From the NCBI GenBank assembly GCA_026023565.1, contig JAPETS010000047.1, positions 62,001 through 126,000 on the forward strand: a stretch of DNA of 64,000 nucleotides, given 5' to 3'. Each line of letters begins with the position of its first letter. Position 1 is the stretch's first letter. The DNA comes from Cirrosporium novae-zelandiae (taxonomy: Eukaryota). Below the pieces are notes generated by a model, which searched no databases, was not told where the DNA came from, and was given only the letters and a program-made list of their open reading frames with translations. Positions 37,069 to 63,672 of the stretch are shown in pieces. A program made the translations under genes and the position numbers.

Positions 37069-38809
37069 ATGACCATCGGTAACATTTATGTTATTACGGC
37101 CATCGCCGTCGTTGGCGGTGGTCTCTTTGGTTTCGACATATCGTCCATGTCAGCCATGTAAGCTAGCTTGACCATTTTTTGCTTTGAGGTATACTGACCA
37201 CTTATCAGTCTCGGAACACATCAATACAAATGCTATTTCAACCAAGGTCCCAACTATCCTACAAAATCAGACCCAACCAATTGCTCAGGTCCTAAGGCTG
37301 ATGTTCAGGGTGGCATAACCGCGTCAATGCCCGGTGGCTCTTTTATCGGTGCTCTGGTCTCCGGATTTCTTTCCGATATCTTTGGCCGTAAAAAGTCCAT
37401 TCAGATCGGCGCAGTTATCTGGTGCATTGGCTCCATCATCATCTGCGCATCTCAAGATATTGCCATGTTGATTGTCGGACGTTTCATCAATGGACTATCA
37501 GTTGGAATTTGCTCCGCACAAGTTCCTGTTTATGTCTCCGAGCTAGCTCCACCAAGTAAACGAGGACGTGTTGTAGGAGCACAGCAGTGGGCCATTACCT
37601 GGGGAATCTTGATCATGTTTTACATTTCATATGGCTGCTCCTACATCAATGGAACCGCTGCCTTCCGCCTACCTTGGGGCTTACAGATGATCCCAGCCAT
37701 CTTTCTATTCCTTGGCTTATTCTTCCTCCCAGAATCACCTCGATGGCTTGCGCGAAACGATCGCTGGGAAGAATGCCATGACGTTCTCGCATTGGTCCAC
37801 GCCAAGGGAGATCGAAGCAACGTCTTCGTCCAAAGAGAATTACAAGAAATCAGAGAAATGTGTGAATTTGAACGAAACAACGCCGACGTGACCTACCTGG
37901 AGTTATTCAAACCAAAAATGCTCAACCGAACCCACATTGGCGTCTTCACACAAATCTGGTCCCAACTCACTGGCATGAACGTGATGATGTACTGTAAGTA
38001 TCCCTCTCCCCCCAACTCCCAACCAGCCAAACTAACACCTAACTCAAGACATAACCTACGTCTTCGGAATGACGGGCCTCACAGGAAGCACGAACCTAAT
38101 CGCCTCCTCGATCCAATACGTAATCAACGTTCTCATGACCATCTTCGCCCTAATCTTCATCGACCGCTGGGGCCGCCGCCTGCCCCTACTAGTCGGCAGC
38201 ACCTTCATGGCAATCTGGATGTACGCAAACGCCGGGCTAATGGCAACCTACGGCCACAAAGCGCCACCAGGAGGCGTGGACGGTGTCGCCGAAGAAAGCT
38301 GGCAAATAAGCGGCGCCCCAGGCCGCGCCGTCATCGCCTGCACCTACCTTTTCGTCGCCTCCTTCGCTCCAACCTGGGGTCCCGTATCCTGGATTTACCC
38401 ACCCGAACTCTACCCCCTACGCGTGCGCGGCAAAGCCGTCGCCCTCTGCACGTCCGCAAACTGGATCTTCAACTTCGCACTCTCCTACTTTGTCCCCCCC
38501 GCCTTCGTCAACATCCAATGGAAAACCTATATAATCTTCGGCGTATTTCTAACAGTCATGACTATCCATGTGTTTTTCTGCTTTCCGGAAACTTCGGGTA
38601 AGACGTTGGAAGAGGTGGAGACGCTGTTTGCTAAGGGTGTTCCGGCGTGGAGGACTAAGGTACAGTATGGACATATTGTGGCGGTTGAACATGGGGAGGT
38701 TAAGGAGGGGATGCTGGATGGTGGGTTTAGTCATGCGGAGGTTGCTGGGGAGGAGGGTGGAGTACCACCAGAAGAGAAGGGTGGGAAGGCACTGGGTCGT
38801 GAAGTGTAA
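37069..38809 (+). CDS. sugar porter (MFS), Hgt1-like high-affinity hexose transporter, 3 exons
   Basis: GGGLFGFDISSMS, DIFGRK, PESPRWL, QLTGMNVMMYY, DRWGRR and PETSGKTLEE. Two GT-AG introns. Confidence 0.93.
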
Positions 38810-55112: not shown

Positions 55113-56675
55113 CTAAACCTTTTCAACCTCCTTCGACGATCCACCAGCAACTTCTTTAATATCATCTTTTCTTTGCGGCACAACCTCTGAGTTGCCTTTC
55201 TCCTCCCTCGGAATCTCGTCTGCCGGAAACACATGCGTGGCCCACTGCTTAACAGGCACCTTGTCCTGGAAGAACAGCTCCACCTCCAGGGTTGATCTAC
55301 CAGTAGTCTCCCCAACGCAGAACCATACATATGCTAGGGTGATGCAGGTTGTCCCTGCATACACAAATCCAAGCATCGGACCTAGATTGGCAGAGTAATA
55401 GAGGTAAGGCGAAGTGAAGACCATGGCCCAGACGGTGAAGAAGAAAGACACGAAGGCGCAGGACATGATCTTGCTGCGGTTCCTTCCCGCCGCAGCTTCT
55501 CCAGCAACAGTATAGGCAAGGGGTCCGAGGCCAAAGTTGAAAGCGACAATGACAGCGTAGGAGAAGACGACAATGGTAGTGCTGTAGGCTGTTGTCATGG
55601 TTTCGGGGATCCCGAGGCCGCCAACAACGATGAGGGCGATGAACATGATGAGCGATGTGATCAGCAGGTTCTCACGCCTGGGTACCTTGTTACCCAGCAG
55701 GACGGAGACGCCGACGGAGATGACTTGAAGGACGTTTGTGATGAGAGATATGGTAAAGGGTTCGGCCATACCGATGGATTCGGCAAAGACGACTCCGTAA
55801 GAATAGAAAAATTGAATTCCGTTGATCTGTTGTGCTACCATGGAGCCGCAGGCATAGAGGACCTTGCGTCGCTCTATGGGGTCTTTCACGAGGGAGATCC
55901 ACGTAGATTGGCTGGCCTCCACTCTCTCGTTTTCTACAGCTAGGCTAAGAGCCTCTATATCTAGCGCAGGATCATAGTCTTTTTCGCCTCTGTGGATTTT
56001 CCTTAAGGATGCAGCCGCCTCTTGGATCTTGTTCTTACCGACAAGCCAAACGGGACTCTCAGGAAGGAATGGAAGGCCCATCAGCATGCACAAAGGTAAA
56101 AACCCCAACAATCCCATCGGAATCCGAAAGGAGGCGGTAGAGGAAATGCCTTCAGTCCCCTGCGTGATTGCCGATCCAACAAGCTGAGAGCACGATTGCA
56201 TAAACTGAAACATCATCGTTGCGGGGCCGCGGATATCTTGCGGAGCAACCTCCCCGATATACAAGACGCAAGTCACCGTGAATTGACCGATGCCAAGGCC
56301 AATAAGGATACGTCCGAAGCAAATGAGACCTTCGTTACCATTATCGGCGATCTGAACAATCGCTCCAGCGATGATGAAAATGGAAGCACAGAAGAAGACT
56401 CCTTTTCGTCCGAAGTAATCGTTTATGGGAGCGGCGAGCAGGGCTCCGCAGAGTTCGCCGACGTAAATAATTGATGCGGTCAGAGATAGAAAGGAGGTTG
56501 TCAACGCGATTTTGCCAGTCGAGTCCCGAGTAGTGCCGTAGAGGTTGATGAAGGGCCTCATGCCTTGAAGGCCGGTGTAATAAATCTGATCATAGCCGTA
56601 GCAGAGGGCACCGAGGGTAGAAATGGCACAGAAGAAGATGGCCCATTTGTGTTTGGTGAGGGTGGTTTTGAACAT
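55113..56675 (-). CDS. sugar porter (MFS), maltose/alpha-glucoside-permease-like, intronless
   Basis: YGYD, DYFGRK, GEVAP--RG, PESPVWL, QQINGIQF and GETTGRST-EVE. About 12 TM segments. ATG context CAAAAAATG with upstream TATATAAAA. Confidence 0.92.
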   Translation of the reverse strand: MFKTTLTKHKWAIFFCAISTLGALCYGYDQIYYTGLQGMRPFINLYGTTRDSTGKIALTTSFLSLTASIIYVGELCGALLAAPINDYFGRKGVFFCASIFIIAGAIVQIADNGNEGLICFGRILIGLGIGQFTVTCVLYIGEVAPQDIRGPATMMFQFMQSCSQLVGSAITQGTEGISSTASFRIPMGLLGFLPLCMLMGLPFLPESPVWLVGKNKIQEAAASLRKIHRGEKDYDPALDIEALSLAVENERVEASQSTWISLVKDPIERRKVLYACGSMVAQQINGIQFFYSYGVVFAESIGMAEPFTISLITNVLQVISVGVSVLLGNKVPRRENLLITSLIMFIALIVVGGLGIPETMTTAYSTTIVVFSYAVIVAFNFGLGPLAYTVAGEAAAGRNRSKIMSCAFVSFFFTVWAMVFTSPYLYYSANLGPMLGFVYAGTTCITLAYVWFCVGETTGRSTLEVELFFQDKVPVKQWATHVFPADEIPREEKGNSEVVPQRKDDIKEVAGGSSKEVEKV

Positions 56676-57091
56676 TTTTTGCTGCGTCAAGAACGAGTCA
56701 GAAGAGACGATTGGATTCCAAGTCTGAGGAGAAGGAGGAGAAGGAAGTTGATGAATATATCAGTTTTACTGATTGATATCGCTCATGGACCTCGGTGGCT
56801 TTTATATAGAGAGAAGATCTAATTAAAAAATAGAACCTATTTGCATTCGTTCCAAGCTCTCTAGTGAAAGGACGAATCATCCTCCAAATATAGTAGCACA
56901 AGTTTGCGGGGTTTGCGGGGGGGGGGGGTGGGGACTTGGTTTACTTTGCTGCTATAATACCACAGAAAGAATCATTTCTGAGCTGGAGAATCCACATTCA
57001 GATCATATGTCTGTACTAGAGTAAGAGTAAAATATTGCCTCGTTCCTTGCGATCGGGGAGGAGAGGGATAGGGGGATGGGGGGGGGCTATC

Positions 57092-57111
57092 CGTCGGATG
57101 CTTCCCCGATA
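57092..57111. promoter_or_regulatory. putative Zn2Cys6 binding site CGG-N8-CCG (copy 1)
   Basis: CGTCGG-ATGCTTCC-CCGATA in the divergent transporter/aldolase intergenic region. Confidence 0.6.
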
Positions 57112-57470
57112 GAATGAAACATTTGAAGGTTTATACTTTCTCTCTCTCTCGCCTAGAAGTAGTCGAAAGGTTTTCATTCTATTCCATTCCATTCCTCTAC
57201 TATAGTAATATAGTTAATTTATGCCAAGATAGAAATAGAAAAATAGGAAAATAGAAAATGGTTGTAAATACTGTGGGAATGGAATGGGTTTTTTATTCAG
57301 GTTGGGATCTAAGGAGTTATAAACATCTAAAAGAAAGAAAGAAAGTAGTTAGACGGTGTAATCCACACGACGATGATGATGATGATGATAATAGACACCA
57401 AGACTACCTGCCAGCTCCAGCAACTCCAACACGTTAATTGTTAGTCGCATTAAACTCTTCAACTCTACAG

Positions 57471-57490
57471 CATCGGGGGAACTTCCGATG
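57471..57490. promoter_or_regulatory. putative Zn2Cys6 binding site CGG-N8-CCG (copy 2)
   Basis: CATCGG-GGGAACTT-CCGATG. Confidence 0.62.
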
Positions 57491-58232
57491 GCGTACTTCT
57501 TTTTTTTTTTTTTTCTTTCTTCTTCCACCGAGGTAATTTAATTAAATTCCATGAAAATCACCAACACTATATTATGACTCCTGATGACTACTGTGCCTAC
57601 CTATGAAGTATCAATCGGGGAATGGAATGATTTATCTACAAGAAATGGGTATAGGGTAGATTGGATTGGTTTAGGGACAGGAACAGGAACAGGAACAGGA
57701 GATCATGATGGATTGATTATATTGCCTCATCCTATAACTCGTATTTCGCGCTGAAATTTGTTTTATTTTTTTCTATCCCCCAATAGCTCTATTGTTGGTT
57801 TCTCTAGATATAATAGTAGTAAGGAAGTAATTCTTTTTCGTTTTTTTTTGGGGGAGGGGGCGAGAATATAGTTATTTAGTTAGTCTATTAATCAATTGGA
57901 TTGGATTGGATCGGATTGAATCGAATGATTTGAAGATGTCTGGGGCTTCTTGGTGGTTTTACTCTATAGACTACTACTACTAAATATCCTCGAGCTCGTG
58001 GATTACTGTTCACGCCATTATTATTCGTATACACTATCCTCTACTCTCTCTCTCTCTCTCTTTTTTGACTATCATCAGACAAAACAAAATATCCCATCAA
58101 CATTTTTGATTTTGTATTTTCTCAAACTCTCATACTCTCATAGAAAAATCACAAACTAAATCTAGAAACGCCTATTCTTCCCTCCTTCCCTACCTTTACC
58201 CACCCATCCACCCCCCCAAACCCATCTTGATC

Positions 58233-59380
58233 ATGTCCGATAAGCCTACCACTACCAACACCTTAGAAGCCATTAGGGCCACTGGCACAGTTCTCATAGC
58301 CGATACGGCGAGTTTTCGGGGTTAGGGACCTCCCATTTTATAATCCATTTATGATAGATTAATATAACTAATATATGCTATATGCTATACTCTAGAAATT
58401 TCACGCTTCCATCCCTCTGAAGGAACAACCAATCCCTCCCTCCTCTACGCAGCCGCGCAACAGCAGCAGCAAGCCTACTCTACTTTTCTCGACCGCACGG
58501 TCCAATATGCTAGATCTTTATCACCAGTGTCATCGCCTTCCGAGTGTCTCTCACTTGCCGTGGAATTCCTCTCCGTCCAGTTTGGTACGGAAATTTACAA
58601 GATCACCGGCAGAGTTGCCACCGAGGTGGATGTCTCGTACTCCTTTATGAGCGAGAAAACGGTGGAGGCTGCCCTGAGGGTCATTGAGCTCTATGCTAAA
58701 GAAGGGGTTCCTAAGGATGCGGTGCGTATCAAGATTAGTGCCACGTGGGAAGGGATTCAGGCTGCGAGGATTCTGGAGCGCGATTATGGTGTTAGTGTTT
58801 TGGTGACTATTGTTTTTGGCATGGTTCAGGCGATCACGGCGGCGGAGGCGGGGGTGAGTTGTATTGCGCCCTATGTTGGGCGCATTGATGATTGGCACAA
58901 GGCGCGTGGGTTTCAGGGGGCGGATATGGGGGTTCAGAGGGTGAAGGATATGCAGAATTATTTGCGCAAATATGAGTTCCGGACGAAGGTTATGGCTGCT
59001 AGTTTTCGGAATATAGAGCAGGTCAAAAGGCTTGCTGGATTGGATCTGCTCACGGTAGCGCCGGGGATCTTGGATCAATTGGAAAAGTGTACGGACGATG
59101 CTCCACCTCAGTTGACGGTGGAAAGCGGTAAGACGTCTTTCTTCGATTTCTTCTAGGATAATTGTGGCATTTCTTTCATCACCGGCGCATTGCTAACCAT
59201 TGAGCAGCTAAAGCGGCTGAACTCCCGGAGTTATCATATATCAATGATGAAGGCGCTTTCAGATGGGCCTTCAACTGGGATGCCTGTGCGGTGGAAAAGT
59301 CAGCAGAAGCCATGAGACTCTTTGCCGAGGATACGGATCGTCTCAAAGCCTTGCTGGCGAGCATGATTACGAGTACCTAG
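58233..59380 (+). CDS. transaldolase-family class I aldolase (330 aa, 3 exons) with FSA-like residues
   Basis: Exons 58233-58320, 58396-59127 and 59208-59380 total 993 nt in frame. Motifs ADTA, TTNPSL, TEVD, Schiff-base RIKISATWEGI, IAPYVGRI, MAASFR and C-terminal E--FRW--N-D--AVEK. Confidence 0.93.
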
Positions 59381-59655
59381 GGAGTCAATACAGCAATTGT
59401 AGTAATCAGGAGATGTCTTGAGATTCAAACTGAAAGTAAAACTAGACGGTCGTAGTGTTGATGTGGAATACCACATTATCATTGATCCAGGGTTGCCATT
59501 TTGGTGCCATCACCATGTATTTGAGAAGGACGACATCATCAACTGCCTCTCGGAAACTATAATGTACCTGGCTCCAAATGCTATTGGATAGAACTTAAGT
59601 GACCCACTTTTCATGTAGGTCAGGCTTAATTGATGGGGAGATCTCATTAATAGTG

Positions 59656-59675
59656 CATCGGGAGCTTCCCCGATG
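59656..59675. promoter_or_regulatory. putative Zn2Cys6 binding site CGG-N8-CCG (copy 3)
   Basis: CATCGG-GAGCTTCC-CCGATG, about 280 bp upstream of the kinase ATG. Confidence 0.62.
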
Positions 59676-59956
59676 GTCCTCCGATGGGGCGTCTAGCCTA
59701 AGAATTTGGGTGAATGGGGGGGGTTACCAACTCATTGTACTGTACAACGTCTCTAATACAAAGTCACGAGTTATTCGCTTCCCGACGATACCTCAGCAGA
59801 CCTATTTGAAGATAATAGTAGGATTAGCGTTAAAACATCTGTACACATCGTATAAATAATAAATATCAGCCGGCTTATTTTATAGCCAGTGCATCTTCTT
59901 GCGCCAGACAATTCGAGTAGTCAATCCATTCTTTCAATTCATCAGCTTTCACCAAG

Positions 59957-61195
59957 ATGCCGTACATTGTTGGTCTCAACAGCGGTTCATCTTTTGACGG
60001 CGTCGATGCTGTCCTTTGTTCAATTGACTTTGCCCCCGACGGTCATCCTGCGCGTCCCAAGTATATTTCTGCCTTGACAGTCGACTGGCCTGAAGAGCTT
60101 TGCCCTCTTATTTTGAGAGCTTTCAATAACACTCTCACCCTTTTCGAACTGTGTCGCCTCAATTATGCCGCCGGAGCCGTATACGCCGAAGCAGCAAATA
60201 AATTATTAGCTCAAGCTGGGCTCAAACCTGAAGATATTGATGTGGTTGGATACGACGGACAAACAATTTACCAGGAGCCTGTCGACAAAACAAAAGTCAA
60301 AGAGTACGAGCAGAGCGGAAATAAGAGCTTGGTAGAAATGTGGACCAAAGGTGGTTTTCCATGTGGACTTTTCATTGTGGAATCAGGCGTCGTTGCCGCC
60401 CTAACCCAAATTACCACTGTTACACAATTTAGACCGGTTGACCATGCACTTGGTGGCTCTGGTGCACCGTTGATGCAATATCTTGACTTTGTTGCTTTCC
60501 GCGATGAAGGTCCTGTCGTGACGTTGAATATCGGCGGTATTGCAAACCTGCAGTTGGCAGATGCTGACCGTAATAAAATGATGGCATTTGACACAGGCCC
60601 TGGAAATGTCATGATTGATCATGTCGTCAAAACAAGAACTGGACGTGGATATGATAAGGATGGAGAATTGGCGGCTAAAGGGACTGTCATCGAACCATTA
60701 TTAGAATACCTGAATAGTCACCCATTTTTTACCCGAAGTCCTCCCCGATCAGCATGGAGATTGGATTTCGGAGCTGACTTTGCGGATCGTATTTTAAAAG
60801 AATACGGTTCTACATCAACTGAAGACCTATTGGCAACATTCACTACATTTACAGCACAATCAATTGAACGATCGTTTGTAGATTTCGTTCTGCCAAAAGC
60901 GCCTGTCACCAAACTTATTGCCAGTGGTGGAGGTACACGGAATGCAACCCTGATGAAAAATTTAAGCCAAAGACTGGCGGTGCACGGAGTCAAGACACGC
61001 TTAAGTGATGATTTTGGTCTTCCGGCGGCTTATAAGGAAGCTATCAAGTTTGCAACGTTGGCCTTTGCTGCAAAAAATGGTTTGGCCAACAATATTCCCG
61101 CAGCTGGAGGCGCTTCATCCTTTGCGGTACTTGGGAAGTTGAGTTTGGCACCGCGGCTTGCGAAGCTCGGAGATTCTCCAGTTAATGGTAAGTGA
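59957..61195 (+). CDS. AnmK / levoglucosan-kinase family anhydro-sugar kinase (divergent), intronless
   Basis: GLNSGSSFDGVD, GQTI, FR--D---GG-GAPL, NIGGIAN, FDTGPGN--ID, YDKDG, GGG--N, KEA and LGK. Confidence 0.93.
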   Translation: MPYIVGLNSGSSFDGVDAVLCSIDFAPDGHPARPKYISALTVDWPEELCPLILRAFNNTLTLFELCRLNYAAGAVYAEAANKLLAQAGLKPEDIDVVGYDGQTIYQEPVDKTKVKEYEQSGNKSLVEMWTKGGFPCGLFIVESGVVAALTQITTVTQFRPVDHALGGSGAPLMQYLDFVAFRDEGPVVTLNIGGIANLQLADADRNKMMAFDTGPGNVMIDHVVKTRTGRGYDKDGELAAKGTVIEPLLEYLNSHPFFTRSPPRSAWRLDFGADFADRILKEYGSTSTEDLLATFTTFTAQSIERSFVDFVLPKAPVTKLIASGGGTRNATLMKNLSQRLAVHGVKTRLSDDFGLPAAYKEAIKFATLAFAAKNGLANNIPAAGGASSFAVLGKLSLAPRLAKLGDSPVNGK

Positions 61196-61456
61196 TGAAT
61201 CTAAATCAACCATCAGCTGAAAAAAGCTAAACAAGGGAGCAGGAGTACCTAAAACGGATTCAAATGGTATTGATGGGGCGCACACAGTTTGACCGATTAA
61301 TGCAATGGTGTACACTGAAGACATACCTCCGCTCTCTTAGCTATAAGATAGTTCAGCTATATAGAATTGTATTTCTTTTCACTTCAACAAGACTGAAGTT
61401 TGGCGAGGGCCCTTTCTAATCGTACTGGAAAGCACACGATCCTCTCTATTAGACCA

Positions 61457-63672
61457 TCATACTTGTAAAAAGTTATGTCGTATATTCTGGAATATCATAA
61501 GAGCATCATGTGAAACCGGAGAATCTTTGGCGCTCTTGCTCAATATTTCTTCTGACACATGAATTAGTTCCTCTATCGCGTTCGGGTCTCCGCAATCACG
61601 GAGGAGCCAAAAGAGTGAGGGAGTAGCTTGAGCTAGAATCAGTGCCATTCCGGCGGCCATAAGACTATTGGGGCCAAATTAATTGGGCTATTCACAATCA
61701 CTTCTGAATTGACCAAGGGATATTATCACTTACGTCTGCAGTTCAATCCAGCTGCAAGATGACGTAAAGCATAGCCTTGTTCCCTGTCGATTTGGCTGCT
61801 GCTCTTCGATTCTCTTGCAAGTTAGTACGATGAGGGCAGCACTCTGTAGACATCTGCGGCAAGACTCGAACAACCAAAAGGTTGACGGATAGTCTTCTCG
61901 AGTATCCGCTAAGCGGGATGCCGAAAGCTCGAGGTCTTCATGCGCTAGATAATATAACATTGGCCGATGAAGAAGGAAACTGCAGGTGTAATAACGTAAT
62001 GCTAGGCTCTGAGAAAGTATTTATCAGTACCTTTAATCCAGGTTCCTACCACAAAAGAAGCTGGGTGCCTACGAGGACATTGTAAGAATTGATTTGAGAC
62101 GAAGTAGATTCTCTGGCACTGGAAACATCCTTTGGAAATTTAAAAAGAGGAGGTTGTCGATGATACCATTCATCCAGTCGGCTTTCTTGGAGAGTGACCA
62201 TCTGCATAATATCTCGTGGATGGCAATAGGCTTGATCAATGGTATAAAGCTCGCTCAGGGTTCGGTTCAAGTGAATCCTCAGCCAAATGTGGGCGGTCAT
62301 AGTATTGGTATCCAATGAAGGCAAATATGGCGACGGGATGCTATTAGGCAATAAAAGCCCACTACTAAGTCTCTCTGATATTTCTGAACTCGTCGGTGAG
62401 GGAGTCCCATCAACATGAGTCAGAAAATCACTTGATAAAGTGATATCAGCAATTTCAGCAAGACCATCCAACAGATTTAAGATATCCTTACCTTTCCTGC
62501 AGAAAATGAATATTCAAACAAGCTGGCCAATGTGCTGGAATAGTCAGATCCTTCCAGCCCCTTGAAAGCTGTCAACCAAATGGTGATATCAATACGGGAG
62601 AGGCGTAAACCCCATAATAAACAACCTAAATCTTACCTTTTAGCCCTCCTAGCAAGTCTATCACCAACCATCTCGATCATCCGAAGCGCATGATGTGGTC
62701 GTAGAAAACATATTGAGAAAATAATCACTGTAACTTGAAGTATGGGAATTGCGGTTTCATCAGGAAGAAAGTTTACCTTCCAAAAATGGGAGAGGGCTAT
62801 CCTGAAGCATGTATCAAAAGAGGCAGAAAGCGAAAAGCCCTGGTAGTTGGCAATGATAATTGACTCCTCAAATCGAGCTTGATGGAGCGCAATTGTCAGG
62901 ATTAAGAGTTCTTGGACTGAGCAAGCCGTCAACTGAAGCTGAACTTCGCCACCATCGATGCTTTGTGGGGGACAACGAGACCGCATGAGAGTCAGAATTT
63001 CATTCCGAGATATGGGAGAGCAATGATGTAATAGCTCCAGCAGGTCAATGCCCAAATCTGTAGCCTCAAAAAGCGCCTCAACACTAGCGATGGCCGAAGA
63101 AAGAGGAATGGTTGGTGAGCCATTCAGAGAGTTCCTCGTATCGACATCAAATGGATGGGCTTGTTCGGTGCGTTGAAGGTATTGCAGAGGCTCTATATTC
63201 GGAAGCGTAAGACATAGCCGGATTCTTGGCCAACATTGCGGCATTCGAAAGGTAGCCGCTGTATGAAGCTCTGGGAAGTGTGGATTCGGAGGAGAAATGT
63301 CACTGGTGGTTGAAAGAGTGCTGGGAAGCGGAACAGGGCTGGAGTGAGAATCTCCAATGCCATGGGCATCCAGATTGTCCAGTCGAGTTTCAATGCGATT
63401 GAGGCGAGCTAGGATATTGCCATCACTATATGGATAGAATGCTTAGTACATTCCATATCCTGAAAAGTAAACAACTGCAGCGCTCTAGTTGACAGGTATT
63501 CATACTTCTCAAGCAATGTTAGGGTCGGTCGGTAGACACAAGTTTTACCGGCGGCCTCACAATGGGAGCAGGTTGGTCGTCGTCCATCACATCTAGACTT
63601 TCTCGCCCGACAGATATCGCAAGCTAAGGAAGCTTTGAACTTCTTTCCAGGAGGAGGTGTACTGCTTGACAT
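61457..63672 (-). CDS. Zn(II)2Cys6 transcription factor, multi-exon
   Basis: ACDICRARKSRCDGRRPTCSHCEAAGKTCVY. Exon 2 gives a ILARLNRIETRLDNL coiled coil in frame with the 63244-62633 ORF, followed by fungal TF middle-region exons. Confidence 0.9.

Follow-up and report, generated by a model that had tools for sequence, protein, structure and literature searches.

Which sugar would call for an anhydro-sugar kinase and a transaldolase encoded side by side, next to a sugar porter and a regulator? The question is raised by a locus of Cirrosporium novae-zelandiae, within a stretch of 64 kb (contig JAPETS010000047.1, positions 62,001 to 126,000) that was analysed as a whole and is referred to here as the window. 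At 55113-63672 of the window lie genes for a major facilitator superfamily (MFS) sugar porter, a transaldolase (TAL) paralogue, a kinase of the family of AnmK and levoglucosan kinase (LGK), and a Zn2Cys6 regulator, all four present and intact, as an earlier sequence-only reading of the window had described them (Table 1). Entries from a metagenome-assembled genome of C. novae-zelandiae match the kinase and TAL proteins with 100% identity. The likely function of the cluster is the breakdown of an unusual bridged sugar along a route that has yet to be described. We read it as a co-regulated catabolic cluster in which the kinase would form a ketose phosphate and the TAL-family enzyme would cleave this product by an aldol reaction, and we put the probability of this reading at about 0.45. 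The observations that bear on it are the gene content of the cluster, its synteny, a promoter motif, an active-site signature and the placement of the kinase in its subfamily. Publications are cited by PMC number, from excerpts of their text.

The kinase represents a distinct subfamily

The match to PF03702 (cut-off 24 bits) spans residues 3-395 of the kinase and positions 2-364 of the 367 in the profile. The FDTGPGN motif (Asp212) aligns with the same motif of LGK and AnmK, and this Asp, together with the N-terminal phosphate motif NSGSSFDGVD, is invariant in 30 fungal sequences; in AnmK of P. aeruginosa the Asp of the DTGPG motif, Asp182, is the catalytic general base (PMC10570956). By the account of the same source, AnmK and LGK are the only anhydro-sugar kinases that have been studied mechanistically. 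The kinase of the window would be expected to open an anomeric anhydro bridge with ATP, as its family does.

The best match in the PDB is LGK of L. starkeyi (4zxz, E 2.7e-48, 168.5 bits, residues 4-396), and bacterial AnmK structures match about as well. Both comparisons are interrupted by a conserved extra segment of about 20-30 residues, roughly residues 106-139: the alignment with 4zxz is gapped opposite residues about 111-137, and the alignment with AnmK breaks between residues 108 and 140 of the query, which face residues 106 to 116 of the chain. In P. aeruginosa AnmK, residues 96-110 form a beta-hairpin that is mobile and acts as a lid on the bound substrate (PMC10570956), and an extra segment at this lid would fit an altered substrate.

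The kinase also scores below the cut-off of all 14 NCBIfam equivalog models for AnmK (the best is NF007148, 339.7 vs 387 bits), as do six bacterial relatives (305-339 bits), whereas E. coli AnmK passes three of the models. In a tree calculated with FastTree, the kinases of fungi are monophyletic with a support of 100 and arise from within a bacterial "long" subfamily, and E. coli AnmK falls far outside on a branch of length 1.9. Neither the MurQ etherase nor other genes of cell-wall recycling were found in the window cluster or in the related fungal loci L003-L007. The sequence-only reading had called this protein an AnmK-like kinase, and it is indeed an enzyme of the AnmK/LGK family, not a canonical AnmK and apparently not a close relative of LGK. 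It would stand for a third subfamily of anhydro-sugar kinases, widespread in fungi and bacteria and missed by current curated models.

An aldolase-type signature on a classical transaldolase scaffold

Our splice model of the TAL gene ends at the TAG codon 59378-59380 and agrees with the orthologues in length and C-terminus. The deposited model (P0127, 376 aa; region 58233-59600) runs past the stop that the orthologues have in common, and its C-terminal tail of 46 residues has no counterpart in 31 aligned relatives. With exon 2 as the query, PF00923 (TAL_FSA) was matched with 147.8 bits, and the best solved relatives were classical transaldolases of eukaryotes, namely yeast YGR043C and the mouse and human enzymes.

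The active site was compared in two alignments, the first containing 22 proteins of the clade linked to the cluster and 10 housekeeping TALs, and the second adding TalB and FsaA, the latter a fructose-6-phosphate aldolase (FSA), both from E. coli K-12; residues are numbered as in TalB, after the E. coli gene in locus L001. At positions 154, 176 and 178 all 22 clade members carry Leu, Ala and Tyr, and all 10 housekeeping enzymes Asn, Ser and Phe. The clade residues are identical to Leu107, Ala129 and Tyr131 of FsaA, which bears out the earlier description of the enzyme as an FSA-like aldolase. Residues of classical TALs are also aligned in the window protein, i.e. the Schiff-base Lys (K132), Asp17, Glu96, Thr156 and Arg181. 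Glu96 is retained in most of the clade; the protein from Verruconis (P0171) has Gln.

FsaA differs from the fungal enzyme in being a decamer of 220-aa subunits with Gln59, whereas the latter has about 330 aa, the classical scaffold and Glu. Exon 2 alone scores 76.1 bits with the FSA model TIGR00875, below its cut-off of 245.95, and the window protein has the classical C-terminal extension, as opposed to the short scaffold of about 220 aa in FSA. The closer parallel is an engineered one. The F178Y substitution raised the aldolase activity of TalB 70-fold and made it a dihydroxyacetone-dependent aldolase (PMC3962226). Like TalB F178Y and F178Y/S176A, the fungal protein combines the classical scaffold with Tyr178 and Ala176, but here the combination is natural, conserved across the fungal clade and accompanied by Leu in place of Asn154. 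The paralogue would offer a natural parallel to the change from transaldolase to aldolase that was engineered in the laboratory.

In the tree, the TAL clade is monophyletic (support 100), has a long branch and is sister to all classical TALs sampled, including bacterial TalB. By tree and signature, the window protein appears to belong to a specialised clade with a remodelled active site and not to be a simple duplicate. Related signatures occur outside this clade. Among the best 150 representatives from a library of 1.84 billion proteins, 119 have Glu-Asn-Ser-Phe and 17 have Tyr, including some with Gln-Asn-Ala-Tyr. Proteins of classical length with Tyr at position 178 outside the fungal clade are P0261, P0288, P0300, P0301, P0310, P0316, P0356 and P0381, several of them with Gln96. 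Natural aldolase-type "long" transaldolases may be more widespread than the literature consulted indicates.

Conservation of the cluster in fungi

Metagenome contigs were scanned by pattern and by tblastn, which returned seven eukaryotic loci, six of them with usable flanks (L006 is too short). The linkage is conserved in four of these six: three (L003, L005 and L007) have the MFS, TAL and kinase genes side by side, and L004 has the TAL gene next to that of the kinase. Identity to the window proteins in L003, L005 and L007 is 67-72% for the MFS porter, 62-65% for TAL and 74-77% for the kinase. Pieces of a homologue of the regulator adjoin the MFS gene in L003 (1397-3064) and L005 (266-457), in a gene order unlike that of the window.

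Named fungi provide a similar picture. Locus tags of TAL and kinase are consecutive or nearly so in Phialemonium thermophilum (6004/6005), Sporothrix curviconia (009607/009608), Verticillium albo-atrum (003744/003745) and Stachybotrys chartarum (03624/03626). In the protein listings, 19 of the 85 entries of the TAL clade match a kinase entry in the length of their longest contig, taken as a proxy for a shared contig. In a published table on Zymoseptoria, a gene annotated as AnmK has genes for an MFS sugar transporter and for a transcription factor as neighbours (PMC7317419).

Two orthologues of the kinase (in Pleurostoma and Fusarium mexicanum) are named "Transaldolase" in databases, which had suggested a fusion of the two proteins, but no such fusion turned up. 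The search for kinase fusions covered proteins of 722-2060 aa and gave five matches, none with a TAL domain, which is weak evidence; these are fusions with MurQ/SIS, decarboxylase and MutS at 32-38% identity. The name probably represents annotation carried over from the neighbouring gene.

A conserved motif in the intergenic regions

The sequence-only reading had pointed to a shared CGG-N8-CCG motif in the promoters of the four genes. In its plain form this pattern has 10 sites in the window where 5.9 would be expected, and a count of 10 is reached in 8 of 100 shuffled sequences, so that its enrichment is not significant on its own. Three of the 10 sites (57095, 57474 and 59659) are intergenic and lie on both sides of the TAL gene, and these have a longer word in common, CGGNNNNNYCCCCGA; a further site at 59214, inside exon 3 of TAL, does not match the longer word. 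The word CGGNNNNNYCCCCGA occurs three times in the window, only beside TAL, against 0.10 expected, and none of 100 shuffled sequences reaches three. All four orthologous fungal metagenome contigs carry it as well, between MFS and TAL, between TAL and kinase, or in both places, with seven sites in total (Table 1). In the 328 bases upstream of the regulator that are left before the end of the window there is no such site.

The recurrence of this word is a phylogenetic footprint. Of the evidence at hand, it speaks most clearly for co-regulation of the three structural genes, and the protein that binds the sites would presumably be the Zn2Cys6 factor encoded in the cluster. We hold it highly probable that the cluster is a functional, co-regulated unit.

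Genomic neighborhood of bacterial relatives

Full-length relatives of the kinase were found in 136 prokaryotic loci, mostly at 53-62% identity, with a Bacillota/Clostridia group at 44-50%. Typically, a LacI gene directly precedes the kinase gene, and a sugar ABC transporter is encoded nearby, in many cases one of the CUT2 type for monosaccharides. The best solved relatives of the binding proteins from these operons, 5dkv and 4wut, are titled ribose-type ABC binding proteins and would indicate a ligand of monosaccharide size, nothing more specific.

A TAL-family gene lies within 8 kb of the kinase in 14 of the 136 loci (counted without de-duplication), and these are spread over the tree in seven places or more. 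The linked enzymes are of three types that are not orthologous to one another: small FSA-like enzymes with Tyr (Solirubrobacteraceae-type loci and Porcincola), small Phe-type transaldolases (Arachnia and Propioniciclava), and a classical enzyme of the TalB type, which passes the talAB model (Agrobacterium tumefaciens ATCC 4720). The linked gene is an extra copy in four of the five genomes checked and the sole copy in Porcincola. That different TAL-family enzymes were repeatedly recruited beside the same subfamily of kinases is, in our view, the strongest argument that the product of the kinase would be a substrate of TAL or FSA, at least in these lineages; the partner serves as a built-in hint to the product of this third kinase subfamily. 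The linkage by which the earlier proposal was to be judged is seen in fungi as conserved synteny and in several bacterial lineages as proximity to non-orthologous TAL/FSA genes.

Other bacterial relatives have different surroundings. In Lachnospiraceae-type loci (L071, L077, L126, L127 and L129), the kinase (44-46% identity) is accompanied by LacI, a CUT2 ABC transporter, a GFO/IDH/MocA oxidoreductase and a Zn-dependent dehydrogenase, which would be a third downstream chemistry for the kinase family. In Bacillus canaveralius (L119, 2748-9302) and Pullulanibacillus pueri (L121, 9001-15552), a relative with 48-50% identity heads an operon with LacI, a CUT2 ABC transporter, a gene of the ribulose-phosphate 3-epimerase family and a class I mannose-6-phosphate isomerase, a composition that suggests a different anhydro-hexose, possibly mannosan. 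In Hyphomicrobiales/Aestuariivirga (L087, L099 and L124), the kinase (56-57% identity), likewise below every NCBIfam cut-off for AnmK, lies between Pth or ribosomal L25 and YchF, with no sugar genes. In a peat metagenome (L011, 4726-6201, minus strand), a GH32 fructan-type hydrolase, together with a CUT2 transporter, GntR and PfkB, lies directly upstream of a unit of LacI, kinase and binding protein, which may tie this relative of the kinase to sugars derived from fructose. A link to heptoses considered for Bifidobacterium panos (L123) was rejected: of the two genes upstream, SIS proved to be a fragment resembling KpsF/GutQ and PfkB a ribokinase, so that neither is an enzyme for heptoses.

Predicted pathway and candidate substrate

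Each chemical step of the pathway proposed here is a prediction, and so is its substrate. The MFS porter would import a sugar with a bridged anomeric anhydro ring. The kinase, following the known chemistry of its family, would open the bridge with ATP and water and leave the phosphate on the freed primary hydroxyl, so as to give a ketose phosphate of D-threo (3S,4R) configuration, and the TAL paralogue, with its Tyr/Ala/Leu active site, would cleave this into dihydroxyacetone, or a related C3 ketone, and an aldose phosphate. Transcription would be activated by the Zn2Cys6 factor, acting at the CGG-N5-YCCCCGA sites of both intergenic regions.

An anhydro-ketose would be required because the family needs an anomeric bridge to a primary hydroxyl and because the product must be a donor for TAL or FSA. 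Two sugars come into question: 2,7-anhydro-sedoheptulose (sedoheptulosan) would yield sedoheptulose-7-phosphate, and 2,6-anhydro-fructofuranose would yield fructose-6-phosphate. Sedoheptulosan fits best, its phosphate being cleaved, according to the scheme, into erythrose-4-phosphate and dihydroxyacetone, and on pathway logic we favour it over the fructose derivative, as a tentative assignment against which the odds still stand. It is favoured because its bicyclic skeleton, 6,8-dioxabicyclo[3.2.1]octane, is that of the known 1,6-anhydro substrates of the family, because a true transaldolase, as present in some of the operons, would suit sedoheptulose-7-phosphate better than glucose-6-phosphate or fructose-6-phosphate, and because an aldolase releasing a triose from sedoheptulose-7-phosphate would dispense with an acceptor. 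In its general form, which we hold to be possible but rather doubtful, the proposal is that the long AnmK-like subfamily includes a sedoheptulosan kinase, which fungi pair with a natural "TalB F178Y-type" aldolase for sedoheptulose-7-phosphate/fructose-6-phosphate and several bacterial lineages with FSA or with an extra transaldolase.

Sedoheptulosan is a standard carbon source of Biolog plates, and its use is patchy among microbes. Bifidobacterium dentium grows robustly on it (PMC8145834) and Botrytis cinerea uses it weakly (PMC4974496), while A. niger isolates, Neoarthrinium moseri and Ophiostoma novo-ulmi do not use it (PMC8261049, PMC12369201, PMC13612382). Our literature searches found no gene assigned to the use of this sugar.

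Several observations speak against the proposed pathway. The window TAL has Glu96 and not the Gln (Gln59) that FSA has in its place, so that the fungal enzyme may still work as a transaldolase. Ala at position 176 (S176A) shifts engineered enzymes to hydroxyacetone over dihydroxyacetone (PMC3962226), and FSA-type aldolases of E. coli cleave 1-deoxyfructose-6-phosphate (PMC13450708), so that the true donor may be a deoxy-ketose, which our scheme does not predict. In Sporothrix bragantina, TAL and kinase are on different contigs, and in the two remaining eukaryotic loci with usable flanks, L058 and L061, neither a TAL nor an MFS gene lies within 10 kb of the kinase. These two represent one eukaryote in two samples, with genes for poly(A) polymerase, SOD and ankyrin nearby; the kinase copy of L058 (10001-11185 on a 194-kb contig) contains introns, is 75% identical in its best exon and lies among housekeeping genes. 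Among the prokaryotic loci, 122 of 136 have no TAL or FSA within 8 kb, and members of the subfamily stand instead beside a GFO oxidoreductase and a Zn-dehydrogenase, beside Rpe and ManA, beside GH32 or melibiase/GH43, or among housekeeping genes. Because these neighbours vary, the subfamily probably spans several substrates, and that of the fungal enzyme would not be fixed by the bacterial ones. As to sedoheptulosan, B. dentium, the one bacterium for which good growth on it was noted here, is missing from the 63 titled genomes with the kinase, although B. panos, B. miconisargentati and a gut species are represented; given the pattern-based scan this is weak evidence, neutral to slightly negative.

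As for precedent, full-text searches, from whose coverage subscription journals are largely absent, yielded no publication of a fungal pathway of this form, in line with what the sequence-only reading had presumed, and no paper that couples an AnmK-family kinase with transaldolase or FSA or that names a sedoheptulosan kinase. The new part would be a predicted anhydro-sugar route assembled from known enzyme families, with a distinct subfamily of kinase and a natural aldolase-type transaldolase. If the proposal of a sedoheptulosan kinase is true, two enzymes would suffice to bring a seven-carbon sugar into central metabolism, the long-used sedoheptulosan well of Biolog plates would gain a genetic basis and FSA-type aldolases a second physiological role; the cluster may also show in what physiological setting enzymes of the FSA type act beyond the enterobacteria. 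The conserved motif and the dedicated regulator make the hypothesis directly testable, and there is practical demand for anhydro-sugar kinases and dihydroxyacetone-type aldolases in the upgrading of pyrolysis sugars and in biocatalysis.

Alternative explanations

The cluster might instead serve levoglucosan, mannosan or another 1,6-anhydro-aldohexose, with the kinase forming an aldohexose-6-phosphate and TAL merely raising the downstream flux, e.g. by converting fructose-6-phosphate to dihydroxyacetone and glyceraldehyde-3-phosphate, or through the pentose-phosphate pathway. We consider this unlikely but worth serious attention, as LGK is the only characterised eukaryotic member of the family as well as the best PDB match, levoglucosan kinase activity is reported for six fungal proteins annotated as AnmK (PMC9476349), and a bacterial relative (L009) lies near a GFO oxidoreductase and a xylose-isomerase-like TIM barrel, resembling the levoglucosan dehydrogenase route, with the ManA genes of L119 and L121 as a further parallel. 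Levoglucosan is moreover by far the commonest anhydro-sugar in the environment. Likeness to LGK extends to the PF03702 family, the fold and the catalytic Asp of DTGPG, and the ring-opening phosphorylation is predicted to be alike; yet a match of 168 bits compares with an identity of 53-62% to the bacterial long subfamily, and the window kinase has its conserved insertion of about 20-30 residues (about 106-139) in the mobile lid hairpin. The LGK route needs no TAL-family enzyme, dedicated porter or regulator, whereas the window kinase is clustered with all three. That glucose-6-phosphate needs no dedicated TAL-family enzyme was an argument of the sequence-only reading; taken by itself this is logic and not evidence against levoglucosan. 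It is joined by the long-branched, specialised TAL clade with its remodelled active site and by the repeated recruitment of non-orthologous TAL/FSA genes.

A second alternative retains a real cluster but has the kinase act on an ordinary rare sugar, or on an anhydro-sugar giving a deoxy-ketose phosphate that would be cleaved to hydroxyacetone and an aldose phosphate. The cleavage of 1-deoxyfructose-6-phosphate in the E. coli route for 1,5-anhydroglucitol (PMC13450708) and the preference for hydroxyacetone donors conferred by Ala at TalB 176 (PMC3962226) would agree with it. Against this, all characterised PF03702 enzymes couple phosphorylation to the opening of an anomeric anhydro bridge and the Asp of DTGPG is invariant here; nor is any natural anomeric anhydro-sugar known that would yield a 1-deoxy-ketose. 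We judge this explanation improbable.

Still less probable is a kinase for anhydro-N-acetylmuramic acid (anhydro-MurNAc) that scavenges fragments of bacterial peptidoglycan, even though databases name the fungal proteins accordingly, a review cites the computational study of Dai et al. 2015 as speculating on peptidoglycan recycling in fungi (PMC10570956), and the housekeeping surroundings of the Hyphomicrobiales relatives are such as a recycling enzyme would have. The AnmK/MurQ pathway of bacteria and the window kinase have the enzyme family and the type of reaction in common, but the latter is under 14 of 14 AnmK cut-offs, three of which E. coli AnmK passes, and no MurQ, NagA or NagB was found in the window cluster or the fungal contigs. 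The long subfamily is surrounded by LacI and ABC or by MFS sugar uptake and not by cell-wall genes, the transporter of the cluster is a porter for neutral sugars, a TAL-family partner would have no role for MurNAc-6-phosphate, and the MurQ fusions among the longer proteins are just 38% identical.

Finally, a chance neighbourhood of four unrelated genes, for which one could cite the rarity of functional clustering among fungal genes and the solitary kinases of L058 and L061, is made highly improbable by synteny across several fungal classes, the common intergenic motif and the independent linkage in bacteria.

Comparison with other known systems

Of the known systems, the one that comes closest to coupling an anhydro-sugar to an FSA-type aldolase is the "anhydroglycolysis" of E. 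coli, in which glycyl-radical enzymes turn 1,5-anhydrohexitol phosphates into 1-deoxyfructose-6-phosphate, which is then cleaved by FSA-type aldolases (PMC13450708). This route for 1,5-anhydroglucitol and anhydromannitol resembles the predicted fungal one in starting from an anhydro-sugar and ending with an FSA-type aldolase (PMC13450708), but it opens an ether by a glycyl-radical enzyme, whereas the fungal scheme would open an acetal by a kinase. The sulfofructose transaldolase (sulfo-TAL) pathway likewise places a dedicated TAL-family paralogue in a catabolic sugar operon for a non-standard ketose; it differs in its substrate, in having no anhydro-sugar kinase and in being restricted to bacteria, as far as the excerpts consulted describe it (PMC7491151, PMC11659671).

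Features of the locus and neighbouring sequences

Table 1. Coordinates of the cluster genes and of the CGGNNNNNYCCCCGA sites in the window and in orthologous fungal contigs
Feature	Position	Strand	Description
MFS sugar-porter gene	55113-56675	-	single exon, intron-less, 520 aa; PF00083 (Sugar_tr) 271.6 bits
TAL paralogue	58233-59380 (exons 58233-58320, 58396-59127, 59208-59380)	+	330 aa
AnmK/LGK-family kinase	59957-61195	+	single exon, 412 aa; PF03702 249.7 bits
Zn2Cys6 regulator gene	63672 down to about 61457	-	several introns; Zn_clus PF00172, 45.5 bits, residues 17-49 of the first exon
CGGNNNNNYCCCCGA site 1	57095-57109	+	divergent MFS/TAL intergenic region, 420 bp upstream of the MFS start codon
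CGGNNNNNYCCCCGA site 2	57473-57487	-	MFS/TAL intergenic region, about 750 bp upstream of the TAL start codon
CGGNNNNNYCCCCGA site 3	59659-59673	+	TAL/kinase intergenic region, 298 bp upstream of the kinase start codon
CGGNNNNNYCCCCGA sites in L003	5175, 6835		
CGGNNNNNYCCCCGA sites in L004	781		
CGGNNNNNYCCCCGA sites in L005	2891, 4851		
CGGNNNNNYCCCCGA sites in L007	1163, 2890		

The MFS protein scores 243.4 bits with the NCBIfam model of the sugar-porter subfamily, TIGR00879, above the cut-off of 237.8. The later exons of the regulator gave no Pfam match. Only 328 bases separate the regulator gene from the end of the window, and because the window stops there the cluster could extend further on this side; on the other side, upstream of the MFS gene, lies a RING-finger gene unrelated to the cluster. 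The divergent intergenic region between MFS and TAL measures 1.56 kb and holds long G runs, a T run and short repeats of the GGAATGGAAT and GGAACA types (56890-57100 and 57490-57520). Elsewhere in the window, reading of the open reading frames by eye revealed a second sugar-transporter-like gene at 37198-38809 (plus strand), in which motifs of sugar porters (e.g. PESPRWL) are split over two overlapping frames, so that an intron or a frameshift is likely.

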